Shown in pieces: positions 8,245-27,964 of a DNA stretch of 64,000 nucleotides (the stretch's first letter is position 1; the number at the start of each line of letters is the position of its first letter). Under the pieces are notes generated by a model. That model ran no database searches. It saw only the letters and a program-made list of their open reading frames with translations, and was not told the origin of the DNA. Both the position numbers and the translations under genes were made by a program. Origin of the DNA: Candidatus Parcubacteria bacterium (GTDB lineage Bacteria > Patescibacteriota > Patescibacteriia > Buchananbacterales > SURF-54). The stretch spans positions 18,224 through 82,223 of the forward strand of contig QZIX01000002.1 of NCBI GenBank assembly GCA_003599635.1, in the 5' to 3' direction.

Positions 8245-9066
8245 GTGAAAAAGAAATTGGGATATGTACGTAAGGATTTAAAAAATCCTTTTTTTAGAAA
8301 AAAAAGGGCAAAATTTTCACTTTATTTTTTTTCGGCTGCGGCCTTAATATTAGCAGCAGCCATTTTTGTAGTCATGGCGCAACGCCTGTTATTGATTAAG
8401 GAAATAAAAATTATCGGCACTGATAAAAAAGAAGAGGTCAGATCCGAAGTTTTAAAGCAGCTGAGTAAAAAAAATTATATATTTTTTTCACAGGAAAACA
8501 TTTTATTTTTAGACAGTAATGGCCTGTCGTCGCAATTAATTGACAAATTCAATTTTGAAAGCATAAAAGTGAAAAAACATCCGTTTAACAGTTTGGAACT
8601 TGATGTTGATGAAAAAACAGCTGCCGCTGTTTTAATGGACAGCCATAATATTTTTTATTTGAATAAGGAAGGTATGGTAACGGCTAAAGCCATTTTGGAT
8701 TCGGCAAGCGAAAAATCAGTACAGAGAAACGAGATTGTCACCAAAGACATTCCGATAATTATGGTACCCGAGCAAAATTACGAACCCGGCAGGATCGCAA
8801 TAAATAAAGACCTTGTAAATTTTGTAGCCAATATCCATGACAGTTTAAAAAATACAACAACTGATATTGAACATTACGAATTGATCGACGATAAATTCAA
8901 TGATATAGCCGCCGTATCATCAGCCGGTTACAAAGTATTTTTTTCTATCCAATCAGACGCAACAAATCAAGTTAAGAATTTAATCGCTCTTTTAGAAGAA
9001 AAAATAAAGGATAAAAAAATTGAATATATTGATCTGCGCTACGGTAACAAAATTTTTTACAAGTAA
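8245..9066 (+). CDS. ftsQ: FtsQ/DivIB-like cell division protein
   Basis: GTG start, a single N-terminal TM segment and an extracytoplasmic POTRA-like region, immediately downstream of ddl. No sharp motif. Confidence 0.45.
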   Translation: MKKKLGYVRKDLKNPFFRKKRAKFSLYFFSAAALILAAAIFVVMAQRLLLIKEIKIIGTDKKEEVRSEVLKQLSKKNYIFFSQENILFLDSNGLSSQLIDKFNFESIKVKKHPFNSLELDVDEKTAAAVLMDSHNIFYLNKEGMVTAKAILDSASEKSVQRNEIVTKDIPIIMVPEQNYEPGRIAINKDLVNFVANIHDSLKNTTTDIEHYELIDDKFNDIAAVSSAGYKVFFSIQSDATNQVKNLIALLEEKIKDKKIEYIDLRYGNKIFYK

Positions 9067-16594: not shown

Positions 16595-17833
16595 TTATGG
16601 CAGATATTCCAAGGGATTGACCGGTATGCCGTTTGATCGGACCTCGAAGTGAAGATGAGGGCCGGAAGTCAATTTTCCCGCCCCGGGGGTTTTGGGTTTG
16701 CCGCCGCTCAATGCAATTATGTCGCCCTTGTTAACGTATTGGTCTTCCTTAACCAAAATTTTGGAAACATGTCCGTAAACAGTGGAAAAACCGTCATTAT
16801 GAATTATCATGATATAACTGTAACCCATGCCTGCATCCTTGGCGCGGGCCACATATCCGCTTTCGGCGGCTTTTACCGAAGTCCCCTGCGAAGCGCGGAT
16901 GTCAATTGCCGGGTGTTCGAAAATGTAGCGATAGGGATAATCGGGATCATGGAAATATGCAGTGACGTATTTGCTGGGCACCGGCCAGATGAATTTTGCC
17001 GGCCCGAATCCCTTGAATTTTTCCTGGGCTTCTCTTTTTTCCAGTTCGTCACGAATTTTTCTTTCCAGCGTGGTTATTTCGGCGTTTATCTGCTGTTCTT
17101 CCAGTTTCAATTTGTATACCAGGTCCTTAAATTGAATTTCCGATTGTTTTGACTGTACAAGGAGCTCGCCTTTGACGAACCGTTTTTCGTCCAAATTGTC
17201 CCGGTGTTCTTTCAGCTCGTCAATCAATTTTTCATTATCCGTTTTTTTTGCTTCCATTTCGGATTTGTCAGCCTGCAGGGTTGCTTTTAAGTCAGTGACT
17301 TTTTGCAGAGTATTTTTTACATCATTCTGCATCTGGTAAAGGTATTCCACCTGATCGAAAAATTCAGAAAATGATCTTTTCTGCAGCAATACCTCAAGGT
17401 AACTTTTTTTATCGTTGATGTTGATAGTTCTTATATATTCGGCCAAATATTTTTTTTGATTTTGTATATTCTTTTCCGTTTTTACGATTTCAGATTCCAA
17501 TTTGCTGATTTCCAGGTTTAATTTTTCAATTTCAAGACTTGTCCTTTCTATATCAAGTTCATTTTTTTTGATTTCATTTTCAAGTATTGCCAGTTGATTT
17601 TTTAAACTTAAGCTTTCCGATTGCTTTTGTTTGATTTGCTTATTGTATTGGTCGATTTTTTCCTTAATAGAATCGATGGCCTTTTTTTTAAGGTCTATAT
17701 CTTCGTTGTATTCATCAACTGAATCGGCTCCGAAAACCGGGGTTGTCCCGGCGATAAAAAAAACAGCCATAAATACGGCTGCAGTCAAAAAAACCGCAAA
17801 AAATATTTTTTTGTTTTTGTTTATAACCGCCAT
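16595..17833 (-). CDS. M23-family peptidoglycan DD-metalloendopeptidase with a long coiled coil (EnvC-like architecture)
   Basis: Signal/TM segment, about 250 aa of coiled coil, then an M23 core (HPAIDIRASQGT...GHVSKILV...GPHLHFEV). Confidence 0.85.
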   Translation of the reverse strand: MAVINKNKKIFFAVFLTAAVFMAVFFIAGTTPVFGADSVDEYNEDIDLKKKAIDSIKEKIDQYNKQIKQKQSESLSLKNQLAILENEIKKNELDIERTSLEIEKLNLEISKLESEIVKTEKNIQNQKKYLAEYIRTININDKKSYLEVLLQKRSFSEFFDQVEYLYQMQNDVKNTLQKVTDLKATLQADKSEMEAKKTDNEKLIDELKEHRDNLDEKRFVKGELLVQSKQSEIQFKDLVYKLKLEEQQINAEITTLERKIRDELEKREAQEKFKGFGPAKFIWPVPSKYVTAYFHDPDYPYRYIFEHPAIDIRASQGTSVKAAESGYVARAKDAGMGYSYIMIIHNDGFSTVYGHVSKILVKEDQYVNKGDIIALSGGKPKTPGAGKLTSGPHLHFEVRSNGIPVNPLEYLP

Positions 17834-17890
17834 TAACTTAATTATAACATAAGTTTACGGCAATTTCCATCGGATTGTCCTCTGCTAAAT

Positions 17891-19876
17891 TTAGTAACAG
17901 CCGACCCAGCGATCATTTCTTGCTTCTACTGCCGCCACGTCCCAGCCGTCGTTTAAGGTTTCCTGGTCATAAGTGGTAAGCCACAGGTTGGCATGGTATT
18001 CATTCGGCACAATCCAGCCGGAATTATACAGATCCGTCAGTTTTTTGCCGTACATATCGCCGCCGGTTGCGTAATATTTGTCCGTAATATCCACTCCGTC
18101 CCTTCTGAAATACCATCTTTCAGCCGTATTGCTTACTTTGTCAATATGTATTTCCCAGCAATACCATTTGTCGGCTAATGTGTCGACGCCGGCAGAAAAA
18201 ATATCGTCGACCAAAACGCCGTAGCCGGAAGGATGGTCGCTGCCAAAACCCAGCGACATAGTGTAATCCATCTGGTTTACCGATGTCAGCCCGAAGCTTT
18301 TGAATTCAGATGTCATCGGCGCATGAAAACGCAGATAATGTTTTGTATTTTTATTGGTGTCGATGCCTGAAAACCAGTGAGTATTGGAATGAAGATTTCC
18401 CGGCTGTACCCAGTCTTTACTGGCGCGGACATATGCCCTGATGTAAAGGTCGTCCGGGTCCCTGAAAATGTCGGGAATGTCAGATGAGCCGTTGATTTTA
18501 AGTTCCATTGTCCTGCCGTCGCCGTCAAGCCCCCCATTGCCTACGGTAACCATTTTTAAGTAATTGTTATTGCCGGGCGCTCCCGGCATAACTGCGGGAT
18601 ACTGCAATGAATTGTTGTAAAACACTTTCCAGGTCTGTTTGTCGGTGCAGTCATCGCCGTAATAGCTTTCCTCGTATTGCGACCCCAGGCCCTGGCAATA
18701 ACCGGTTTTGGTGTTCCAGCTGGAAAAGAAAAGGCAGCCGGGATCGCCTGAACAGTTCGTTTCCGGACTGCTGCACGTTTGCTGTTCCGAAGGTTTCGGA
18801 AGAACGGGACAGTAATAGGTTGAAGGGTCAGGGTCCAGGCAGGTTCTGGTCTGAATACCATTGATGCAGCTTCCCCAATCTGAACACTGCCATGATTCGG
18901 TGCAGGAAAAACAAGATGACGAACTAAGACAGTCTGAATCAGAGCAGTCTGTTTTTCCGTCGCAGTCGTTGTCATAGTTGTCCGAGCAGTTTTCAGCAAC
19001 ACAAGCCGGCTTACCGGGTTTTACAATCACAAAATACATGATATTGCCCACACAGCCGTCGCCGCAGGCGCCCAAAGAAACTTTTCCCGGCAGATAATTC
19101 TTAACGTAAATCAGGCTTTTCGATCCGGCGCTGGTAGTTAAGCTTAAACCCGTGGGGGTAAAATTTTGCGTCAGCCATAAAGGTTTTTTGCCCCAGCCCC
19201 AGGAATCTTCCCAGCCGATTACATAAACTGTTGCCGGTTCGGAAATTTCAAAACTTACGCTTAGCGATGAATTGGCTTTGTCATCCATTTTCGTCCTTAA
19301 AAGCGTTTGCCCTGAAAGTTCGGAAGAAAGCGATCTAATGGTGATAGTTCTGTCAATATACGGCTGAGATCCGGCATTGGCAATTCCGCTTTTGTATGTT
19401 GAGGGTGAAATATCCGTTAAAGTCAGGCCGGACGCCGAAAAAAAGCAGTCAGTGTCATTTTCATCGGTCCCGCCGTCGCAGTCGTTGTCAAAACCGTCCG
19501 CGCAGATTTCCGAACCCGCGCAGCAAAAATTGTCATTGCAGCCGAATTGGCAGTCGGTGCTGACCGAACGGGCATAGGTCAGACCGCCGACACCGGAGCA
19601 GTAATATTCTTTTAATGACACCGGATCCAGACAGGCGTCAGGATAACTGATGCGTCCGTTGATTAAAATTTCACCCGGTTTTTGAAAATTTATGCCACCG
19701 TCAGAATCCAGGCAGGTTTTTACTTTGGTTATGGTCGCTTTTTTGGTAGTTCTCAGCCGGGCATCAGCCGTAAAAGTAGTCACAACGCCGACAGCAATGC
19801 TTAAAGCAGCTAATGCTGCCAGAAAAGCGATCAGAGTGAATAAAACTGATTGTTTTTGTTTTATGAAGTTATCCAC
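17891..19876 (-). CDS. large Cys-rich secreted/surface protein
   Basis: N-terminal TM. Modules: CLDSDGG...LKEYYC; two DNDCDG metal-binding-type motifs (CADGFDNDCDGGTDENDTDC, CSDNYDNDCDGKTDCSDSDC); a lectin-like middle; and a C-terminal beta-rich domain. The annotated start is GTG. Confidence 0.6.
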   Translation of the reverse strand: MDNFIKQKQSVLFTLIAFLAALAALSIAVGVVTTFTADARLRTTKKATITKVKTCLDSDGGINFQKPGEILINGRISYPDACLDPVSLKEYYCSGVGGLTYARSVSTDCQFGCNDNFCCAGSEICADGFDNDCDGGTDENDTDCFFSASGLTLTDISPSTYKSGIANAGSQPYIDRTITIRSLSSELSGQTLLRTKMDDKANSSLSVSFEISEPATVYVIGWEDSWGWGKKPLWLTQNFTPTGLSLTTSAGSKSLIYVKNYLPGKVSLGACGDGCVGNIMYFVIVKPGKPACVAENCSDNYDNDCDGKTDCSDSDCLSSSSCFSCTESWQCSDWGSCINGIQTRTCLDPDPSTYYCPVLPKPSEQQTCSSPETNCSGDPGCLFFSSWNTKTGYCQGLGSQYEESYYGDDCTDKQTWKVFYNNSLQYPAVMPGAPGNNNYLKMVTVGNGGLDGDGRTMELKINGSSDIPDIFRDPDDLYIRAYVRASKDWVQPGNLHSNTHWFSGIDTNKNTKHYLRFHAPMTSEFKSFGLTSVNQMDYTMSLGFGSDHPSGYGVLVDDIFSAGVDTLADKWYCWEIHIDKVSNTAERWYFRRDGVDITDKYYATGGDMYGKKLTDLYNSGWIVPNEYHANLWLTTYDQETLNDGWDVAAVEARNDRWVGCY

Positions 19877-19877
19877 A
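19869..19877 (-). promoter_or_regulatory. perfect DnaA-box 9-mer overlapping the GTG start of the Cys-rich protein gene
   Basis: On the minus strand, TGTGGATAA contains the annotated GTG (19876..19874) and the TAA stop of a 29-codon upstream ORF. Confidence 0.4.
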
Positions 19878-20097
19878 GGTTTGTTTTTTAATTGTAAATT
19901 CCGTCAATAAAAAAAATCCTATTTGAATTAATAATATTTTAATGAAATTATAGGACATTTTCCCCTCCTATAATAAAATTGTAAGGATTTAGTGTTATTT
20001 TAGCATAAAAAGTAACATTGGACAACGAAATTTCCATTACTGTGTTGACAACAAAGGCAGTTTATTCAATTTTAATGAAGATTTGGTTAAGAAATAG

Positions 20098-20397
20098 TTA
20101 CTGCTTCCTTATATATTTTTTACAGTTTTTGCTTTTGCATAAGCATTTAAAGTTAAGGACTGTAGCGTCTTTTGAATAATCTGATGTTATCTCTTCACCT
20201 TTTTTTATTGATTTAATCGCTATGTCACTTTGTCCTCTCACTCTGGTATTAGACTCGCAGCAGTGGTTGACGTATCTTTCGGGAATTCCTTGCAAAATAT
20301 ATTGGCCTTTTTTATAGCTGGAAACATAATGTTTGAGCTTAGCAGATAGCTTTTGATATTCTCTTTTAGTTAAAATTTTTTTCGGTTTCCATTGCAA
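20098..20397 (-). CDS. SET-domain protein-lysine methyltransferase (5' part in another frame, see findings)
   Basis: Motifs YVNHCCESN (NHxCxPN-type), GEEITSDYS and post-SET CLCKSKNC (CxCx4C). In-frame codons upstream of the TTG read IKGKGVFTARNFKKGEVV, the SET N-terminus. Confidence 0.8.
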   Translation of the reverse strand: MQWKPKKILTKREYQKLSAKLKHYVSSYKKGQYILQGIPERYVNHCCESNTRVRGQSDIAIKSIKKGEEITSDYSKDATVLNFKCLCKSKNCKKYIRKQ

Positions 20398-20450
20398 TAC
20401 AACCTCGCCTTTTTTAAAATTTCTGGCGGTAAATACTCCTTTGCCTTTAA

Positions 20451-20464
20451 TTTTTTATTTTTTT
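20451..20464 (-). promoter_or_regulatory. A7-T-A6 homopolymer tract (coding strand) at the SET-gene frame break
   Basis: Plus strand reads T6-A-T7. The two reading frames of the SET gene meet here. Confidence 0.5.
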
Positions 20465-20523
20465 ACTATGACATTTGTCATTTGAAATTTTATCAGACAT
20501 TAAAAATTTGTAATTGAAAATTT

Positions 20524-21240
20524 TTAAACTATCCATTTCAGAGTTTCTTCGAACAATTTTTCTTCTGTTCCCTCTTCGCAAAAGTTATGGCTTGAGCCCC
20601 TTATTATTACATAATCGTTTTTTGGCTTTATCATTTTTAAATACGGCAGCCAGTGCTTATGGGTACCTGATTCTGCAAAGATAAACTTTATAGGCGTGTC
20701 AAGTTTTCTAATAATTTTTCCGGGCTCTCTTGCCTCTGCCCATTCATTTATCATTTTTTTATTGGCCAGGGTTTCTTTTCCCCAGCGAAGAATATATTTA
20801 TTTAAGGATTTGTTGTAAGTAATAAATTTATCTTTAGTATTGGTAAATCCTTTTGTCGGGTCCCATAAAACAATTTTTTTTATGCCCGAAAGATTAGATT
20901 TTAAAATTACCAGGGCGCCAAGGCTGTGGCCGATAAGAAAAATATTTTTGTATTTATCTTGGAATTTGTTTAAAACAAGCTTTAAGTCATTTACGTGTAT
21001 GGTTACGCACGTGTCGCTTAATTGCCGCCCATTTGGCTTTCGGCTGTAAAAATCAAAACGGAAAGTGTCGAACCCCTTTTTGGTAAAAAAAGGCACGGCA
21101 TTAAAATACTGGTGTTCCCTGGAGCTGCCTGTTAAGCCGTGCACAAATATCAGCAAAGTTCGCTTATGCTTCCCCTGCCAGTTACGCGTGCCGTAAATAA
21201 TGTGGTTGTCTTTGGTTTTAATTTTAATTTCTTGTTCCAT
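20524..21240 (-). CDS. alpha/beta-fold hydrolase
   Basis: Nucleophile elbow LIGHSLGA, HG oxyanion region (IFVHGLTGS) and a C-terminal His (SSHNF). Confidence 0.75.
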   Translation of the reverse strand: MEQEIKIKTKDNHIIYGTRNWQGKHKRTLLIFVHGLTGSSREHQYFNAVPFFTKKGFDTFRFDFYSRKPNGRQLSDTCVTIHVNDLKLVLNKFQDKYKNIFLIGHSLGALVILKSNLSGIKKIVLWDPTKGFTNTKDKFITYNKSLNKYILRWGKETLANKKMINEWAEAREPGKIIRKLDTPIKFIFAESGTHKHWLPYLKMIKPKNDYVIIRGSSHNFCEEGTEEKLFEETLKWIV

Positions 21241-21287
21241 TTGTTTAGTTGTAAGCGATAAGTTATAAGTGGCAAGTTTTTAAACAG

Positions 21288-21397
21288 TGTCATCTCGACC
21301 GATGTTACGATTATTTGGGGTGAGTGGAGAGATCTCGATATACTTTAGCTTTTTTAAAACGAGATTTCTTCCCGCGGACGCGGGACTCGAAATGACA
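21288..21397. repeat. MITE-like gene-less copy of the GIY-YIG element (two hairpin modules)
   Basis: Runs TGTCATCTCGACCG...GGAGAGATCTCG to CGAGATTTCT...CTCGAAATGACA. The left 50 nt match 25979-26028 at about 42/50 positions by eye. Confidence 0.7.
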
Positions 21398-21405
21398 ATT
21401 GTTTT

Positions 21406-21432
21406 TGTCATTCTGAGCGGCACCGAAGAATC
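21406..21432. repeat. single TGTCAT hairpin module
   Basis: Sequence TGTCATTCTGAGCGGCACCGAAGAATC with the internal inverted repeat ATTCT/AGAAT. Confidence 0.6.
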
Positions 21433-21509
21433 TAAATTATTGTTTATTTCTAAACATTCTTAGGAAGACAGGGGTTTCAAAACATCACGAAACCCCTATG
21501 AATTTGTAG

Positions 21510-21749
21510 TTAAGCGATTTGCCTTAACATTGCATGGGCTTCCCTTAACAGATTATCCCTTTGGTTTTTTATAATCTGTTTACTGTATTTCTTGGCAATG
21601 TTTCTTATTGCCGTGGCTTGCTCATGAACATTAAGGCCGTATCTTGCCAAGCAATTAATCAGCGATCTGTAAGCTGAATTGATTCTTGCTAACTCCTCAT
21701 CGGTTAGCTTTGGATTATTTATCCATTCAAGCATTGCCGCCGTAACCAT
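21510..21749 (-). CDS. hypothetical helical protein
   Basis: Track ORF 21510..21767. The internal ATG at 21749 is preceded by AAGGGGGGG (SD-like) and is the more likely start. Confidence 0.35.
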   Translation of the reverse strand: MVTAAMLEWINNPKLTDEELARINSAYRSLINCLARYGLNVHEQATAIRNIAKKYSKQIIKNQRDNLLREAHAMLRQIA

Positions 21750-21982
21750 GCAAATCCCCCCCTTCATAAGAGCAATTTTTTTGGCCTTCCTAAAAATATT
21801 TTAAATTTTTAATACATATCTTCATCATCATCTTTTTCCTTTGGCCCCTTTTCTTTTAGTTGTTTTTTGACATATTTAATAATTTCAGTTAAGTCATTTT
21901 CCAATTCCGGTGGAATTGTATCACACTGTGTATAACCCCTTATAAATTTTTTAAATACTTTCTGCTCTATATACCATTTAAA

Positions 21983-22162
21983 TTATTCTCTGCCTAAAAT
22001 TTCATTGAAAGCTTTTTTAATTTTAGTTATAGCTTCTTCCGGCAAAGGTTTTTTATGCCAAACTGAAAGCAGTAACAATTCATCCGGATTATAACCCCAG
22101 TCAGGATAATATTCTTCAGCTGGGCTTAAGGGAAAACTTAATTCTTGCTTTACATTTTCCAT
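21983..22162 (-). CDS. hypothetical 59-aa protein; its frame continues past a TAA for 57 more codons (21809..21982)
   Basis: Hand translation gives MENVKQELSFPLSPAEEYYPDWGYNPDELLLLSVWHKKPLPEEAITKIKKAFNEILGRE*. Below the track's size cut-off. Confidence 0.3.
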   Translation of the reverse strand: MENVKQELSFPLSPAEEYYPDWGYNPDELLLLSVWHKKPLPEEAITKIKKAFNEILGRE

Positions 22163-22174
22163 AAGTTTTTGTTA

Positions 22175-22250
22175 TGTCATCCTGAATTTATTTCAGGATC
22201 TAGATTCCCCGCCTTTGCAGCGATGTAGGCGAAACGGGTTCGGAATGACA
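22175..22250. repeat. two-module TGTCAT...ATGACA palindromic element
   Basis: Sequence TGTCATCCTGAATTTATTTCAGGATCTAGATTCC...GGGTTCGGAATGACA. Confidence 0.75.
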
Positions 22251-22325
22251 ATTGTTTGGGATTTATGATTTAGAAGTTGGACTTTTATTAGAAATTAGGA
22301 TTTGGAAATTTTTACTATTATCGTT

Positions 22326-22721
22326 TTATTCTTCTATATCTCTATCGCTACTCTTTCCTTTCCAATTCAGCCAGAACAAATACGCAATTAAAAACGGAAC
22401 GCCGGAAATTTGCAGGATCCAGGCCAGGTAATACCATTCAAAACCCGTTGATATCATATTCCATAAGACAAAACCAATGTAAAAAAGTCCGGCCAAAGCA
22501 AAGAAAACAGCGCCGACAATTTCTTTTTTCCAGGCAATAATTAATATAAGCAATAAAACAAATGTCGGAACATTGTGCATAAAAAGTCCGATAGCAACGT
22601 CTTTGGCGTTTGCCGCGCCTTCAAAGACATCCAGCGAAAACATCGCCAGAAACAAGATGAAGATAATGGAGAGGATTCTGGGAGTCCAGTAGATGAGTTT
22701 GTTTGTTGTTTGCTGTTCCAT
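22326..22721 (-). CDS. hypothetical 4-TM membrane protein; its 5' head is repeated twice upstream
   Basis: 131 aa with four hydrophobic segments. The N-terminus MEQQTTNKLIYWTPRILSIIF is shared with the stubs at 23463..23525 and 24074..24115. Confidence 0.5.
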   Translation of the reverse strand: MEQQTTNKLIYWTPRILSIIFILFLAMFSLDVFEGAANAKDVAIGLFMHNVPTFVLLLILIIAWKKEIVGAVFFALAGLFYIGFVLWNMISTGFEWYYLAWILQISGVPFLIAYLFWLNWKGKSSDRDIEE

Positions 22722-22742
22722 GTAATTTATACTTAAAAAATT

Positions 22743-23447
22743 TTATTTAGTTATATTTAATGTAGCTAAAGCCTGCTGGTACTGTTCATCCAATTCCTTG
22801 CTATGATATATGCAGATATAATCACTTGGGCGTTTGTCTTCACTAATCACAACTTTTTTATATTCAATGCAATAATGACTACCTTTAAGGTCACCATCTG
22901 GCCGTGGTGAACTTGTAACGACTTTGAGCAAATTTAAGCCGTTACTGTTTTTTTCTCTTTCCGTGTAGGATAAGGTAGTGTGATCGAGACCATAGCCGTT
23001 TTTATACATATTTTGAAAATATTTCTCAAGGCTCTCCGGCTCAATAATTTTTCCTTTTTCATCTCGCATATTGTAATATTCATAAATGATTTGTATGTGA
23101 AAGCGGTGAAGCGGATTATCATTTACGGCTACCCTGGCAACGACAAAGTAATTGGGCTGTTGTTCTAATTGAATTTCATCATAATCGCTTTTGATTGTAA
23201 ATTCCAGCCCTAAAGCTTTGCTAAAAATTTTAACGAATTCTCCTTGCTTTTCCTTTTGCCATGACAGATAGTTTTCTTGAGGTTTATTTATCGATCCACC
23301 ATTTTTTATTTCCTTATCTTTTTTAACGTTAACGTTAATTTGTTGGTTTAACCTTGCTTGCTGTTTTTTCTGGTATAAAGCGAAGCCACTGATTGCTATA
23401 ATTGTTGCAATTAGTATTATTAGCACTGGTACAACGATTTTTTTCAT
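22743..23447 (-). CDS. hypothetical secreted/anchored protein
   Basis: 234 aa with an N-terminal MKKIVVPVLIILIATIIAISGFAL signal/anchor. No motif recognised. Confidence 0.5.
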   Translation of the reverse strand: MKKIVVPVLIILIATIIAISGFALYQKKQQARLNQQINVNVKKDKEIKNGGSINKPQENYLSWQKEKQGEFVKIFSKALGLEFTIKSDYDEIQLEQQPNYFVVARVAVNDNPLHRFHIQIIYEYYNMRDEKGKIIEPESLEKYFQNMYKNGYGLDHTTLSYTEREKNSNGLNLLKVVTSSPRPDGDLKGSHYCIEYKKVVISEDKRPSDYICIYHSKELDEQYQQALATLNITK

Positions 23448-23462
23448 AGATTTATAGTTATA

Positions 23463-23525
23463 TTAAATAAATAAGATTGAAAGAATTCTGGGAGTCCAGT
23501 AGATAAATTTGTTGTTTTTTTGCAT
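23463..23525 (-). repeat. 20-codon stub duplicating the 5' head of gene 22326..22721
   Basis: MQKNNKFIYWTPRILSILFI* versus MEQQTTNKLIYWTPRILSIIFI... of the full gene, with a 20-nt identical core ATCTACTGGACTCCCAGAAT. Confidence 0.8.
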
Positions 23526-23545
23526 ATGATAAATTAAATTTTAAA

Positions 23546-24040
23546 CTATCTGATTATTTTTGCGTCTTTGGGCAATTCTTTCTGTATTATTCCCAAATCA
23601 GTTTCGGAATAATCATTTCCGGAAATATCAAGGGTTCTTAAATTTTTTAGATTTCCCAACTCATATGGCAGTCCGGTAAGCTTATTATTAGATAAATCTA
23701 ATACCTGCAGGTTTTGCAATTGTCCGATTTCTGCCGGGACTCCTGTCATCTGGTTATTGCTCATATCAAGGATTTTTAAGTTTTGAAGATGCCTGATTTC
23801 CGCCTGTACGGCGCCGGTTAACTGATTGTTTGAAACATCCAGTTCTTCCAGGCTTGTTCGGTTAAAGACATACTCCGGAATTTTTTGCAGGTTTTGATTG
23901 CTTAAGTCTAATTTTTTTGTTTTCGGTGTATCACTCTGGTTTTTGTTTTCATTTTCTATAGAGACTTGTTTTTGAGGCGGCAGTAATGAACAACCGTTTA
24001 GCAATAATGCGATAATCATTGTGAATAGTATTTTTTTCAT
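23546..24040 (-). CDS. leucine-rich-repeat lipoprotein
   Basis: Lipobox LLLNGC, then about 5 LRR units (LxxLxLSNNxLTGxPxEIGxLxNL). Confidence 0.8.
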   Translation of the reverse strand: MKKILFTMIIALLLNGCSLLPPQKQVSIENENKNQSDTPKTKKLDLSNQNLQKIPEYVFNRTSLEELDVSNNQLTGAVQAEIRHLQNLKILDMSNNQMTGVPAEIGQLQNLQVLDLSNNKLTGLPYELGNLKNLRTLDISGNDYSETDLGIIQKELPKDAKIIR

Positions 24041-24073
24041 ATATTTTAAGTTATATAATTAAAATTGATAATG

Positions 24074-24115
24074 TTAAGTCATCCAGTAGATGAGTTTGTT
24101 TTTGGTTTGATTCAT
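24074..24115 (-). repeat. 13-codon stub duplicating the 5' head of gene 22326..22721
   Basis: MNQTKNKLIYWMT*, with a 19-nt identical core AACAAACTCATCTACTGGA. Confidence 0.8.
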
Positions 24116-24191
24116 AAATTTTTACGATGGCTGTTAGCTAAAATTATTTTATTGGATTGTGCAAATTTGATAAACCGTATCAGGCTTCATT

Positions 24192-24950
24192 TCAATTCTT
24201 ATCTAGGTTGCTTGATTTTAGGTAATCTAATAAGGCTGGACTTATTGATATAGTTTGATTTCCTTCTTTAATAACAAGAGTCATATCTGCAATTGCTTTG
24301 TATAACTTGAATGCTGCTAAGATTGTTTTATTAGCATCACCTTTCTGTTGGCGAGTATCATATTCCCATGAATGCAAGTATTTATTTCTAATGTTCCTTA
24401 TTACTTCAAATTGTTCATAAATTTTTCCCCCAATTGTTTTGATTGCAAGCAAAATATTTTCTCTTCTTATTTGTCTTATATCCTCAAAACTTTGTCCAAA
24501 CAATTTTTTTTCATCTTCTTCTGTAATTTTTTGTCCTCTTATATTGAAATTGCTCATTTTCCAAATAAGAAGAGTTAGCATTTCGCTAATTATTCCTGAT
24601 AATGCTATACAAGATAGGTATTCCCCTAGACAGTACTGCCTTTTTGCAGAAATCAATGGGTCAATGATTCGTTCAATAATATTTTGATAACTAGGAGTTA
24701 TTGTTACATGCGTTTCTTGGGTTGTTATTTCAGTATATCTTTTTAAAATATCTTGATTTATGGTAGTTATGGGTCTTTCGAAAAAATATTCAAGTTGGGT
24801 TACGGTATGTTTTATAGCTTGGTTTGTTGACGGAGACAACAAGTCATCAATTTTACAATTTTCGATAAAAGGGCCAAAGGAGCTATTAATTCTTAATAAT
24901 ACCCTATCCTTTTCTTCATTCTCTTTTTTTTGATCTATGTTTTTAGTCAT
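24192..24950 (-). CDS. HEPN-like protein (Rx4H motif), putative RNase/toxin component
   Basis: 252 aa, all-helical in character. FEVIRNIRNKYLHSW contains R188-N-K-Y-L-H193, the RNxxxH form of the HEPN motif. No search was run. Confidence 0.4.
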   Translation of the reverse strand: MTKNIDQKKENEEKDRVLLRINSSFGPFIENCKIDDLLSPSTNQAIKHTVTQLEYFFERPITTINQDILKRYTEITTQETHVTITPSYQNIIERIIDPLISAKRQYCLGEYLSCIALSGIISEMLTLLIWKMSNFNIRGQKITEEDEKKLFGQSFEDIRQIRRENILLAIKTIGGKIYEQFEVIRNIRNKYLHSWEYDTRQQKGDANKTILAAFKLYKAIADMTLVIKEGNQTISISPALLDYLKSSNLDKN

Positions 24951-24966
24951 ATAGAATAATTTAAAT

Positions 24967-25440
24967 TTATTTTTTTGTATTTTTTATAATAAAACTATTG
25001 TTATATTCTTGATGACTATTTACCCCCTTGCCGGTAACCATAAATAGAATCTGGCCATTGTCTGAGTAAGTGGGTAAGCTTGCCATTTTTTTCTTTTCAC
25101 CTGCATCTATAAAACTGCAATTGTGACTAGATGAACGAATTGGATCCTCTTCGTAATTATAGAATTCAGTTATGGGTCGTTGCTGCTTTTTTTTGTCTTG
25201 TAACCATTCGATCGTTATGTTTAAATCTTGAATCGGGTCATTTCCAAGATTGGCCAGTTCGGCAGATAACCCAAGTTTTTGACCTAGAGAAGATATATAT
25301 AATTTGGGTGAGAAAGATTTTTTTGGAGGATTGATGAAAAAGTAGCGTCTTATAAAGAATCCAAATATTGTAATCAAGATGCCTAAGAAAAAAATAATAA
25401 AGCTACTAATGACTGGATATTGTTCAATAAGTTGAACCAT
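24967..25440 (-). CDS. hypothetical single-pass membrane protein, upstream partner of the HEPN-like gene
   Basis: 157 aa with an N-terminal TM (VISSFIIFFLGILITIFGFFI) followed by a soluble domain. Only a 16-nt gap to the next gene. Confidence 0.5.
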   Translation of the reverse strand: MVQLIEQYPVISSFIIFFLGILITIFGFFIRRYFFINPPKKSFSPKLYISSLGQKLGLSAELANLGNDPIQDLNITIEWLQDKKKQQRPITEFYNYEEDPIRSSSHNCSFIDAGEKKKMASLPTYSDNGQILFMVTGKGVNSHQEYNNSFIIKNTKK

Positions 25441-25480
25441 ATTTTATTTAAAATTAAATGTTTCCTTTATTTAGTTTTTT

Positions 25481-25547
25481 GAGATTCCGAAACAAGCTTG
25501 CCCCGTATCTCCACCATATGCGGATGGTGCTGGGGTTCGGAATGACA
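25481..25547. repeat. right-hand hairpin module (GAGATTCCG...CGGAATGACA)
   Basis: Shares AGATTCC...GGGTTCGGAATGACA with 22205-22250. Confidence 0.6.
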
Positions 25548-25561
25548 ACGTTGTTTAGTTA

Positions 25562-25888
25562 TTATATATCAAATTCTTTTGCTATTAAATTCATCTTATC
25601 TGAAATTTCATCAAAAATTGGATCATCTTCGGCTACTGCCGCGCCTGGCTTTATTTTTAAAAAAATTCCTTTTAATTCATTGAGCCAGTTTTTTATTTGT
25701 TTATCTTTAACTAAAGCTAAAAAATTGTCTAATGCTTGTCCAGCTGACTTTAATCCAGCTTCACTCCAAATTCCTTGCAGCCGGGACATTGCAACCAAAC
25801 TCTCGCTCAAGTGGTGAAAAAATTCATTGCGAGCTTTTTCCAATGGCGGCATTTCGTATTGTTTTTGAGAATTTTCCTGATTTTTCAT
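25562..25888 (-). CDS. hypothetical protein
   Basis: 108 aa of balanced composition. The antisense track ORF 25458..25817 runs through a repeat and looks spurious. Confidence 0.45.
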   Translation of the reverse strand: MKNQENSQKQYEMPPLEKARNEFFHHLSESLVAMSRLQGIWSEAGLKSAGQALDNFLALVKDKQIKNWLNELKGIFLKIKPGAAVAEDDPIFDEISDKMNLIAKEFDI

Positions 25889-25915
25889 ATAACAATAAGT
25901 TGATTGAAGGGTTTT

Positions 25916-25970
25916 TGTTATCCTGAATTTATTTCAGGATCTAGATTCTTCGCTTTCGCTCAGAATGACA
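25916..25970. repeat. two-module TGTTAT...ATGACA element
   Basis: Sequence TGTTATCCTGAATTTATTTCAGGATCTAGATTCTTCGCTTTCGCTCAGAATGACA. The first 33 nt are near-identical to 22175-22207. Confidence 0.75.
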
Positions 25971-25978
25971 TGTTTATT

Positions 25979-26381
25979 TGTCATCTCGACCGGTGCCACG
26001 ATTTTTTAAGGTGAGTGGAGATATCTCATAACATCAAATCTTGCGATAAATCATTCAATTTGGGATTAACCTTCCTTATTAAATCCACCTTCTTTTTCCT
26101 TGACCATTTTTTGAGCTGTTTTTCTCTGGTAATGGCATCAGATACGTTATCATAAGGTTCGTAATAAACTAATTTGTTTATATTGTATTTTTTTGTAAAA
26201 CCTTCCACTACCTTATTTTTATGCTGGCTTATTCTTTCATCAAGTTTGCTTGTTACGCCAATATAGCTTGTGGTGTTCCACTTATTCATCATAATATAAA
26301 CGTAATAGGTTTTTCCCATAGAGTAAGGTATGAGATTTCTCGACTAGCTAAAAAACACTTTACGCATCGCTCGAAATGACA
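25979..26381 (-). mobile_element. terminal-inverted-repeat-bounded element carrying the GIY-YIG gene
   Basis: The left end TGTCATCTCGA (25979-25989) and right end TCGAAATGACA (26371-26381) are inverted repeats with 1 mismatch. The GIY-YIG ORF fills the interior, and its TGA stop lies inside the left module. The ends are homologous to the gene-less copy at 21288..21397. Confidence 0.6.
26026..26319 (-). CDS. GIY-YIG nuclease family protein (small stand-alone type)
   Basis: YYVYIMMNKWNTTSYIGVTSKLDERISQHKN is the GIY-(x)-YIG...R...H core; 97 aa. Confidence 0.85.
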   Translation of the reverse strand: MGKTYYVYIMMNKWNTTSYIGVTSKLDERISQHKNKVVEGFTKKYNINKLVYYEPYDNVSDAITREKQLKKWSRKKKVDLIRKVNPKLNDLSQDLML

Positions 26382-27899
26382 TTAATATTCCATCGCTTTT
26401 TTAAGCCTATTCAAAACCTTTTCCTTGCCCAAAACCGCGGCGACTTCAAACGGCCCGGGGGATTTTTGGCGGCCGGTTAAGGCAACGCGCATCGGCCACA
26501 GATTGGTGCCGGTATCCAATTGGTTGGCTTTTATAAATTCCATCACCTTTTTTTCTAACATATCGGCCGTAAAATCCTTTTCATCAATTTCTTTTAGCAG
26601 GTTGTAAATCAGATCCAAGGCTTGTTTGGTTTTTTCCATATCAGCCTTTTTCCAGACCAGCATTTCTTTTTCGTATTCCGGTTCTTGGAAGAAAAATTTT
26701 GTGGCTTCGGGCAGCTCTGTTAAAGTCTTGACCCTTTCTTTTTCTGTGGCAATAATCATTTTAAATTTATCAAAAGAAATTATTTCGCCTGACTTTTTCA
26801 CAACCAAGTCTTCTTCTATATTTTGACCCATATATCCTGTGAGCTCAGGCTTAACTTCCGCGCTTCTAAAAATCGGTTTTAAAATACCTTCTTTAATGTA
26901 AAAATAGACAGCAAAATTTGCCAACTCTTCTAAAGATTTTCTACGTATATACTGGCCGTTTATCCAGTCAAGTTTTTCCACGTTAAACACCGCGCCTGAC
27001 TTATTGATTTTTTCAAGCGAAAACTCCTTAACCATTTCATCAAGAGAAAATATTTCCCTTTCATCGCCGGGGTTCCATCCTAAAAACAAAACGAAATTAA
27101 GCAGGGCTTCGGGCAGATAGCCTTTTTCCAGATAATCTTTAACAGCAACGTCCCCCACTCTTTTGGATAGCTTTGACCGGTCGGGATTAAGCAGTAAAGG
27201 CACATGCGCGAATTGAGGCGCCTGCAAATTTAAAAATTTATATAAGATGATGTGCTTGGGAGTCGATGAAAGCCATTCCTCGCCGCGCATAACGTGGGTT
27301 ACGCCAATTTCCGCATCGTCAACGACAGACGCCAGATGGTAAGTCGGAAAGCCGTCGGATTTGATTAAAATCTGATCATCAAGCAGGTCTGTTGCAAATT
27401 TCACATGTCCCCGGATCAAGTCGTCAAATTCAATGGTTTCATTCTCCGGCATCTTCAATCGTATAACATACGGAACTTCGTTTTTTAATTGTTCGGCTAC
27501 TTGTTGCTCTGTTAAATCCCTGCATTTTTTATCGTACATTGTGGGTTTTTTTAAATTCCTTTGTTTTTGATGCAGCTCTTCTAATCGTTCTGGTGTGCAA
27601 AAACAATAATAAGCCAGGCCGGAGTCAATCAATTTTTGCGCGGCTTTTTTATAAACATTAAGCCGCTGCGACTGAAAGACAGGTTCATTATCAAATTTCA
27701 GTTTAAAAAAATTCAAAGTGTCGATTATGTCTTCAATTGCGCCTTCGACATATCTTTTTCTGTCGGTGTCTTCGATGCGCAGCAAAAATTTGCCCTTGTT
27801 TTTTTTGGCCAGCAAATAATTATATAAAGCCGTGCGCAAACCGCCGATGTGCAAAAAACCCGTGGGGCTGGGAGGAAAACGTGTAATTATTTTTGTCAT
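26382..27899 (-). CDS. gltX: glutamate--tRNA ligase
   Basis: Motifs RFPPSPTGFLHIGGLRTA (HIGH) and KLSKR (KMSKS). The track start at 27914 is an ATG donated by the TGTCAT repeat end. The start at 27899 (MTKIITRF) matches the usual GltX N-terminus. Confidence 0.95.
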   Translation of the reverse strand: MTKIITRFPPSPTGFLHIGGLRTALYNYLLAKKNKGKFLLRIEDTDRKRYVEGAIEDIIDTLNFFKLKFDNEPVFQSQRLNVYKKAAQKLIDSGLAYYCFCTPERLEELHQKQRNLKKPTMYDKKCRDLTEQQVAEQLKNEVPYVIRLKMPENETIEFDDLIRGHVKFATDLLDDQILIKSDGFPTYHLASVVDDAEIGVTHVMRGEEWLSSTPKHIILYKFLNLQAPQFAHVPLLLNPDRSKLSKRVGDVAVKDYLEKGYLPEALLNFVLFLGWNPGDEREIFSLDEMVKEFSLEKINKSGAVFNVEKLDWINGQYIRRKSLEELANFAVYFYIKEGILKPIFRSAEVKPELTGYMGQNIEEDLVVKKSGEIISFDKFKMIIATEKERVKTLTELPEATKFFFQEPEYEKEMLVWKKADMEKTKQALDLIYNLLKEIDEKDFTADMLEKKVMEFIKANQLDTGTNLWPMRVALTGRQKSPGPFEVAAVLGKEKVLNRLKKAMEY

Positions 27900-27908
27900 A
27901 AGTGTTTC

Positions 27909-27964
27909 TGTCATCCTGAACTTGATTCAGGATCTAGAGATTCCGGATCAAGTCCGGAATGACA
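27909..27964. repeat. two-module TGTCAT...ATGACA element
   Basis: Sequence TGTCATCCTGAACTTGATTCAGGATCTAGAGATTCCGGATCAAGTCCGGAATGACA. It supplies the false gltX ATG. Confidence 0.75.

Follow-up and report, generated by a model that had tools for sequence, protein, structure and literature searches.

A GIY-YIG nuclease gene between inverted hairpin repeats in Candidatus Parcubacteria: a probable Ssn endonuclease with variant SRM hairpins

Why does a small GIY-YIG nuclease gene sit exactly between two inverted repeat arms that also occur nearby as a pair without any gene? The question is raised by a 64,000-nucleotide stretch of contig QZIX01000002.1 from a Candidatus Parcubacteria bacterium (hereafter the window), in which a 97-aa open reading frame (ORF) beside gltX is bracketed by such arms. 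A preliminary description, made from the sequence alone, had taken this arrangement for an autonomous transposable element with a miniature inverted-repeat transposable element (MITE) derived from it, and had proposed an undescribed system because small proteins of this type were thought to have no assigned function. The layout was confirmed, but the claim of novelty was overtaken by a paper that we located by a full-text search with the repeat sequence itself, in which Ssn was characterised in 2025 as a site-specific single-stranded DNA (ssDNA) endonuclease (Chenal et al., Nat Commun 2025, PMC11893778). We conclude that the window unit is a new Patescibacteria member of the published Ssn/SRM pair, with variant hairpins, and not an undescribed system. 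Judged by its sequence, the ORF very probably encodes an Ssn-family site-specific ssDNA endonuclease, with the surrounding modules as its cognate hairpin repeats (SRM). The gene, its two arms and the gene-less pair are as follows.

26026-26319, minus strand: ssn homologue, a 97-aa single-domain GIY-YIG nuclease gene recognised by its Pfam match and alignment to SsnA.
25979-26028, plus strand: SRM downstream of ssn, TGTCATCTCGACC...GGAGATATCTCA (plus strand TGTCATCTCGACCGGTGCCACGATTTTTTAAGGTGAGTGGAGATATCTCA), with one stem mismatch; same type as the downstream modules of survey loci L001 and L067; repeat family D16.
26332-26381, minus strand: SRM upstream of ssn, plus strand GAGATTTCTCGAC...CTCGAAATGACA (GAGATTTCTCGACTAGCTAAAAAACACTTTACGCATCGCTCGAAATGACA), minus strand TGTCATTTCGAGCG...AGTCGAGAAATCTC; tandem-GA subclass, same type as the upstream modules of L001 and L046.
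21288-21337, plus strand: left arm of the gene-less pair and paralogue of 25979-26028, to which it is 86% identical with the long loop counted in.
21360-21397, minus strand: right arm of the gene-less pair, whose ends match 26332-26381 and whose interior is a 7-bp TCCCGCG hairpin (-8.4 kcal/mol, z = -2.7).

The Ssn family comprises single-domain GIY-YIG enzymes that cut only ssDNA, 5' of a hairpin repeat of the form GTC-palindrome-C (PMC11893778). In Neisseria the repeat is the NTS, CGTCATTCCCGCGMAVGCGGGAATCYRG, an extension of dRS3; the NTS and its relatives (SRM) are associated with ssnA, a 94-aa single-domain GIY-YIG gene of CDD family cd10448, and SRM lie near 71% of homologues and on both sides in 42% (PMC11893778). 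SsnA binds the repeat solely as ssDNA and cuts a few nucleotides 5' of it on the forward strand only, leaving double-stranded DNA and RNA uncut; the three nucleotides before the palindrome (GTC) are needed for cutting and the C after it for binding (PMC11893778). NTS repeats cluster around surface-protein genes of Neisseria, Ssn restricts recombination of incoming ssDNA, and N. meningitidis SsnA reduces transformation by NTS-containing DNA (PMC11893778).

The identity of the window protein as a GIY-YIG enzyme, which the preliminary description had read from its sequence, was borne out by a Pfam match to PF01541 (E=3.2e-16, residues 5-77), and the Pfam scan revealed neither a credible second family nor an extra domain. 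Pairwise alignment with the N. gonorrhoeae orthologue of SsnA gave 49% identity over 90 aa with 0 gaps (E=1e-29), and tblastn with the window protein found N. gonorrhoeae sequence NZ_CP119142.1 at E=1e-19 in a 7.3-Gb database; the window protein thus falls within the published homology threshold for Ssn, blastp E<1e-10 (PMC11893778). Its residues Y8, Y19 and E66 align gap-free and with the same spacing to the catalytic Y6, Y17 and E64 of SsnA, and in a 40-sequence alignment Y19 and E66 were invariant and Y8 at least 90% conserved. A "GIY-YIG nuclease family protein" listed for a Candidatus Parcubacteria bacterium matches it at 100% identity, and relatives of the window protein number thousands.

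No named Neisseria SsnA was among the 120 protein matches listed, and the gonococcal orthologue was picked here by its NTS flanks and because its residue numbering (Y6/Y17/E64) and its length (94 aa) agree with those published. The locus (L190) encodes ...VYILASQRNGTLYIG...AITREKQLKKW...FDII amid NTS copies. NZ_CP119142.1 is a 2.17-Mb N. gonorrhoeae chromosome that is filed as a plasmid in PLSDB, and the gonococcal ssnA orthologue (L190 686-973) was found to have no in-frame ATG, a nearby ATG being one base out of frame, which suggests a frameshift or an unusual start.

For the repeats, we defined a module as (T)GTC followed by a palindrome that opens and closes with AT and then by C, reading GTCAT...ATC in the forward (F) orientation and its complement in the reverse (R) orientation. 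This functional core (GTC, palindrome, C) is present on both sides of ssn, with a perfect 5-bp closing stem upstream and one mismatch downstream. When TCGAAATGACA is reverse-complemented, the outer 11-mers of the two arms, TGTCATCTCGA and TCGAAATGACA, show a single mismatch. The TGA stop of ssn (26026-26028) lies inside the left arm, and the last base of the right arm, 26381, directly adjoins the gltX stop codon (26382-26384). In the gene-less pair (21288-21397) the arms stand 22 nt apart with no ORF between them. Its left arm is 86% identical to the ssn-side copy over 49 nt, including an unusual 26-nt loop, and the right arms have the inner end GAGATTTCT and the outer end CTCGAAATGACA in common, with differing interiors. 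In all these respects the geometry drawn in the preliminary description proved accurate.

The modules are clustered far beyond expectation. With at most 1 mismatch, TGTCATYTCGA matched 7 times in the window against 1.9 expected, a count reached by 0 of 100 shuffles, and the pattern GTC-ATNNN...N'N'N'AT-C gave 11 matches against a shuffle mean of 2.6, above all shuffles, with 10 of the 11 in 21.2-28.0 kb. Addition of two slightly degenerate copies brought the total to 12 modules, all within 6.7 kb (21.3-28.0 kb), ten of which have GTC and a perfect 5-bp stem closed by C; one other carries a single stem mismatch and one reads GTT. Short-loop copies fold well as ssDNA (z = -4.1 and -4.5).

The association was then followed across phyla. 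A scan of one genome per species yielded 80 loci from at least 15 phyla, with homologues 46-66% identical to the window protein, in hosts that include Patescibacteria, Cyanobacteria, Bacteroidota, Proteobacteria, Bifidobacterium, Chloroflexota, Omnitrophota and Planctomycetota, among others. Nearly all 80 loci showed by eye a GTCAT-hairpin-ATC upstream and a GAT-hairpin-ATGAC downstream. Within 150 nt, GTCAT occurred upstream at 55 of 78 loci, ATGAC downstream at 59 of 77 and both at 47 of 75, on a background of ~13% per side, and the refuting conditions set in the preliminary description thus leave the association standing. Module density was 6.2/kb within 100 nt of the gene, 0.13-0.20/kb beyond 500 nt (~0.15/kb beyond 1 kb) and 0.48/kb in distant intergenic DNA; modules are therefore ~40 times denser near the gene (≤100 nt) than further off and ~13 times denser than in the remaining intergenic sequence of these loci. 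A strict detector found an F module upstream at 32/76 loci, an R module downstream at 28/76 and both at 20/76, compared with 8/630, 10/630 and 0/630 for control ORFs. Among 118 termini, just the T at -1 is conserved outside GTCAT (~70%), and positions +6 to +10 inside favour Y-C-Y-G-A. The exact NTS consensus flanks some homologues, as at L045, from a Saccharibacteria metagenome-assembled genome (MAG), and at L049 and L072. The module-gene association is general and orientation-specific, and homology, architecture, clustering and cross-phylum generality are all direct observations.

Several points weigh against reading the unit as a working Ssn/SRM pair. Both arms adjoining the gene lack a predicted stable hairpin in a nearest-neighbour DNA model (z = +0.8 and +1.1), and they could be decayed or non-functional sites. 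The published SRM pattern, HGTCWYN(0-2)YYVSBRHN(0-5)WNVSBRGN(0-2)RNCYNB, has 0 matches in the window and matches just 13 of 73 homologous loci within 200 nt. A role in transformation would be an extrapolation from Neisseria, and what supports it on the host side, that Patescibacteria take up DNA, is general background.

As to the first of these points, the gene-adjoining arms fit a subclass, GTC-ATNNN-GA-N...N'-GA-N'N'N'AT-C, which occurs at 30 of the 118 ssn flanks. Its 5-bp stem comes in 11 different compensating versions, and a Watson-Crick pair always lies inside the GA/GA step. From this pattern we infer that the stem of tandem-GA modules is extended by a tandem sheared G·A motif, which would be why the thermodynamic model misses the ssn-adjoining arms; the strict Watson-Crick hairpin detector overlooks the same subclass. 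The published pattern was built around TCCCGCG-type stems with short loops, and because it found nothing in the window the modules were defined here by their functional core. The window modules are thus variant hairpin subclasses that the published search pattern misses.

Compared with the Neisseria system (PMC11893778), the window unit has the same ~95-aa single-domain GIY-YIG protein and the same repeats of GTC, an AT-starting palindrome and C, which likewise flank the gene, recur nearby and bracket neighbouring genes. It differs in its host, a member of the Parcubacteria (Patescibacteria), a phylum unmentioned in the main text of the paper, and in its hairpins, which have either CCTGAA stems or tandem-GA stems with loops of up to ~30 nt. 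Furthermore, the module after the gene is in forward orientation at the N. gonorrhoeae locus, whereas it is inverted in the window and at most of the 80 loci.

If the window protein acts as its homologues from Neisseria and Wolbachia do, it would cleave ssDNA in the following way. When DNA becomes single-stranded, as incoming transforming DNA, lagging-strand template or repair intermediate, an SRM would fold; Ssn would bind the stem and the C after the palindrome and would nick a few nucleotides 5' of GTC, only on the strand reading GTCAT...ATC. Since the two modules beside the gene are inverted relative to each other, the predicted cut sites would lie just outside the SRM-ssn-SRM unit and on opposite strands.

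What such a unit is for is a separate matter, and here the first alternative is compatible with the protein being Ssn. The SRM-ssn-SRM unit may be an autonomous minimal insertion sequence mobilised by its GIY-YIG nuclease, with gene-less doublets such as 21288-21397 as MITE-like derivatives; we consider this possible but rather unlikely. The mobility hypothesis is neither new nor settled; the authors of the Ssn study had themselves put forward, as a hypothesis, the likeness of NTS-ssnA-NTS to an insertion sequence and the analogy with REP/BIME-RAYT systems (REP, repetitive extragenic palindrome; BIME, bacterial interspersed mosaic element) (PMC11893778). The layout indeed resembles terminal inverted repeats, and the gene-less pair and the gene-bearing copy have a lineage-specific long loop in common at 86% identity. 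Boundaries between paralogues are exact. For loci L049 and L072, both in one MAG, homology begins exactly at GCTGTCAT and stops at ATGACA, the sequences outside being unrelated; their arms are 100% and their interiors ~80% identical, and the 96% identical units of L003 and L005 diverge right after ATGACAG. One exact protein, P0051, occurs in at least 4 gene contexts, and homologues more than 50% identical are found in many phyla, which suggests horizontal spread.

Other findings oppose mobility. No target-site duplication was seen at the window flanks (...tgtttatt before TGTCAT, ttaatatt after ATGACA) and no direct repeat in the 118 termini, and the unit thus lacks this mark of a classical terminal-inverted-repeat transposon or MITE. 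A precise empty site was not found either, the closest gltX relative being merely 63% identical, and synteny around gltX points to an 8.5-kb island and not to a 403-bp insertion. Proteins P0063 and P0008, from Parcubacteria-type groundwater populations, stay in one context in all samples, and P0229 likewise has essentially one context in the context look-up. The segment common to the P0051 loci is 772 bp long and runs from a tRNA gene 3' end to a tRNA-3'-end-like sequence, not from SRM terminus to terminus. The window holds a single ssn in 64 kb, its SRMs are locally clustered and not dispersed, and the spacing between adjacent units has no sharp length preference. Ssn is hydrolytic and cuts one strand orientation of ssDNA, so that with sites on opposite strands both ends would not be cuttable on one strand. 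GIY-YIG enzymes hydrolyse DNA and are not known to carry out strand transfer. Of the element and MITE proposed in the preliminary description, the exact paralogue boundaries and the several contexts of P0051 speak for it, while the target-site duplication and the precise empty site are wanting.

P0051 is a 95-aa Ssn homologue found at L164-L173, where at least 4 contexts contain a 772-bp unit (gene -326 to +158) with 97.5-99.2% identity between copies. It begins immediately behind the CCA end of one or other of two tRNA genes, closes with the tRNA 3'-end-like ...AGTCCACCAT and also carries an antisense 47-aa ORF.

Among known systems, REP/BIME-RAYT and IS200/IS605 resemble the ssn unit in having a small nuclease gene between inverted copies of a hairpin recognised as ssDNA. 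The likeness to REP/RAYT extends to REPIN-like gene-less doublets, a short motif at the hairpin foot (GTAG in REP, GTC here) and the lack of a target-site duplication. However, Ssn has a GIY-YIG fold, without a covalent intermediate or known strand transfer, and IS200/IS605 recognises the same strand at both ends whereas the sites of the Ssn unit are on opposite strands. An HUH/Y1 transposase of the IS200/IS605 or REP-RAYT kind was ruled out, as Pfam and NCBIfam searches matched GIY-YIG-type families only. The dRS3/NIME arrays of Neisseria (NIME, neisserial intergenic mosaic element) are similar in that short palindromic repeats with an ATTCCC...GGGAAT-type core cluster around variable genes; they have other stems, and the arrays within the 64 kb of the window are much smaller.

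A second alternative, which we judge improbable, is a homing-type process in which F-R doublets came first, as targets, and ssn inserted between their arms, so that gene-less pairs would be empty sites. It would account for the gene lying always exactly between an F and an R module and for the common occurrence of doublets with variable centres. At L049 and L072, the 100% identity of the arms next to ~80% for gene and leader also agrees with it, as would be expected if the arms were part of a homogenised repeat family and did not co-diverge with the gene. Nevertheless, Ssn leaves double-stranded DNA uncut and cuts outside the hairpin instead of between the arms, no doublet and filled site were found at one locus, and the centre of the gene-less pair in the window does not resemble the inner junctions of the copy that carries the gene. 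The window protein has the GIY-YIG catalytic core in common with homing endonucleases of the I-TevI type and with UPF0213/YhbQ. The nearest solved structures are UPF0213 proteins (1zg2, E=3.6e-6; 1ywl, E=8e-5), and this weak similarity indicates a different subfamily. An I-TevI-type homing endonuclease was rejected, the protein being 97 aa long without a DNA-binding extension or intron context and scoring 18 bits on TIGR01453 against a cut-off of 56; no phage homologue was found in 50,697 phage records.

The last alternative, that the modules are generic intergenic hairpins (terminators or regulatory stems) beside ssn by coincidence, is hardly credible: the modules are intergenic, some are stable stem-loops and one doublet lies between two genes just upstream of gltX, but they are concentrated beside ssn over other intergenic DNA and orientation-specific, with both modules at none of the control ORFs, their GTC and C are conserved across phyla with covarying stems, no T run follows the stems, and no Rfam family matched, whether at gathering score over the whole window or at E≤10 over 21.2-28.1 kb. 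A tRNA scan also found nothing.

The Ssn/SRM assignment thus stands as the preferred one, and its setting in the window remains to be described. The other modules and the island that holds most of them are as follows.

21406-21433, plus strand: solo SRM TGTCATTCTGAGCGGCACCGAAGAATCT, 8 nt from the preceding module.
22175-22250, both orientations: SRM doublet, F at 22175-22200 and R at 22203-22250.
25483-25547, minus strand: solo SRM with a long structured loop, folding at -11.2 kcal/mol.
25916-25970, both orientations: SRM doublet 8 nt from the ssn unit, a degenerate F (GTTAT) at 25916-25941 and R at 25944-25970.
27909-27964, both orientations: SRM doublet directly upstream of gltX, F at 27909-27934 and R at 27939-27964 (z = -4.1 and -4.5).
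17834-26381, no strand assigned: lineage-specific island between gltX and an M23 peptidase gene, with the ssn unit as its gltX-side edge, at the gltX stop codon.

Both junctions of adjacent units have an 8-nt A/T-rich spacer, ATGACA-attgtttt-TGTCAT at 21392-21411 and ATGACA-tgtttatt-TGTCAT at 25965-25984, and the junction regions are inverted repeats of each other over 51 nt, with 78% complementarity (I1). The idea of a constant 8-nt spacer, made up of two cut offsets of 4 nt each, was dropped because spacer length varies broadly across loci, from 7 to >50 nt.

In at least 15 relatives from the candidate phyla radiation, the gene directly after gltX encodes an M23 peptidase and is the homologue of window 16595-17833, whereas 8.5 kb separates the two genes in the window. 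The island between them encodes a 661-aa protein, a SET-domain protein, an alpha/beta hydrolase, a DUF7670 protein and lipoprotein-like/leucine-rich-repeat proteins, for which no homologues were found in the gltX loci of the relatives. It holds 10 of the 12 modules, the remaining doublet (27909-27964) lying beyond gltX. In the metagenome scan, ssn adjoined gltX in 0 of 80 relatives, the closest GltX being 63% identical. The repeat clustering resembles that of NTS around surface-protein genes, and it also gives gltX itself a repeat-gene-repeat layout.

Some further observations concern gltX and the island. An F-R doublet just upstream of gltX also occurs in three distant relatives (L086 2909-2970, L097 2913-2992 and L106 2874-2966), and at L097 the reverse module (gattccggatcaagtccggaatgac) has the very sequence of window 27939-27963, despite a GltX identity of only 47%. 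In the listed gltX ORF the first ATG (27912-27914) comes from a GTCAT repeat terminus, whose CAT gives it when read on the opposite strand; the true start is probably the ATG six codons downstream, at 27897-27899 (MTKIITRF...). Within the island, the 5' ends or upstream regions of three consecutive ORFs (22657-22713, 23467-23523 and 24082-24109) contain a repeated segment with 79-93% identity (D11, D12), which suggests paralogous signal-peptide or lipoprotein N-termini.

Others concern repeats at the surveyed loci. L171, a short contig, carries two tandem ssn copies (756-1043 and about 1113-1426) that are ~89% identical, with several modules between them. L067, from an Anaerolineales genome, has at 8541-8800 four head-to-tail units with an 84-nt period and junctions GAAATGAC-aaggagtct-GTCATTTC, an array of hairpin-repeat doublets. 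At a Parcubacteria locus (L174-L180), six population variants are nearly identical over 950 bp; the main difference, in columns 609-630 of alignment A6, is the loop of one hairpin, swapped between GTGA-GCGTAGCGAAT and GCGATCCGCCTACTGGCGGAGC-AAT with stem and termini unchanged, which matches the situation in the window, where two right arms have common ends and different interiors. Codons derived from the repeats lengthen several database homologues, as in P0105 (MLNLFQH...), P0020 (...VIPRAKPEES...), P0083 (...RDSSPSRGSE) and L036 (...DSRIRGNDI).

These results give a concrete, experimentally grounded annotation, Ssn ssDNA endonuclease with SRM, to the "GIY-YIG nuclease family protein" that is very common in candidate phyla, and SRM repeats explain the hairpin-encoded peptide tails that contaminate many ORF calls. 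The Ssn/SRM pairing extends to Patescibacteria and to hairpin subclasses beyond the published pattern, which is relevant to the mining of Ssn enzymes as ssDNA tools with new specificities. The question of mobility gains comparative facts, namely that homology between paralogues has exact TGTCAT...ATGACA boundaries, that one identical gene recurs in different contexts and that polymorphism within a population was confined to a loop. If the unit were mobile, it would represent a new class of insertion sequence acting through ssDNA, with a GIY-YIG nuclease and host repair or replication; gene-less doublets would be its REPIN- or MITE-like derivatives, hypervariable hairpin loops and local arrays would be footprints of its activity, and it would have spread horizontally over most bacterial phyla, including Patescibacteria.

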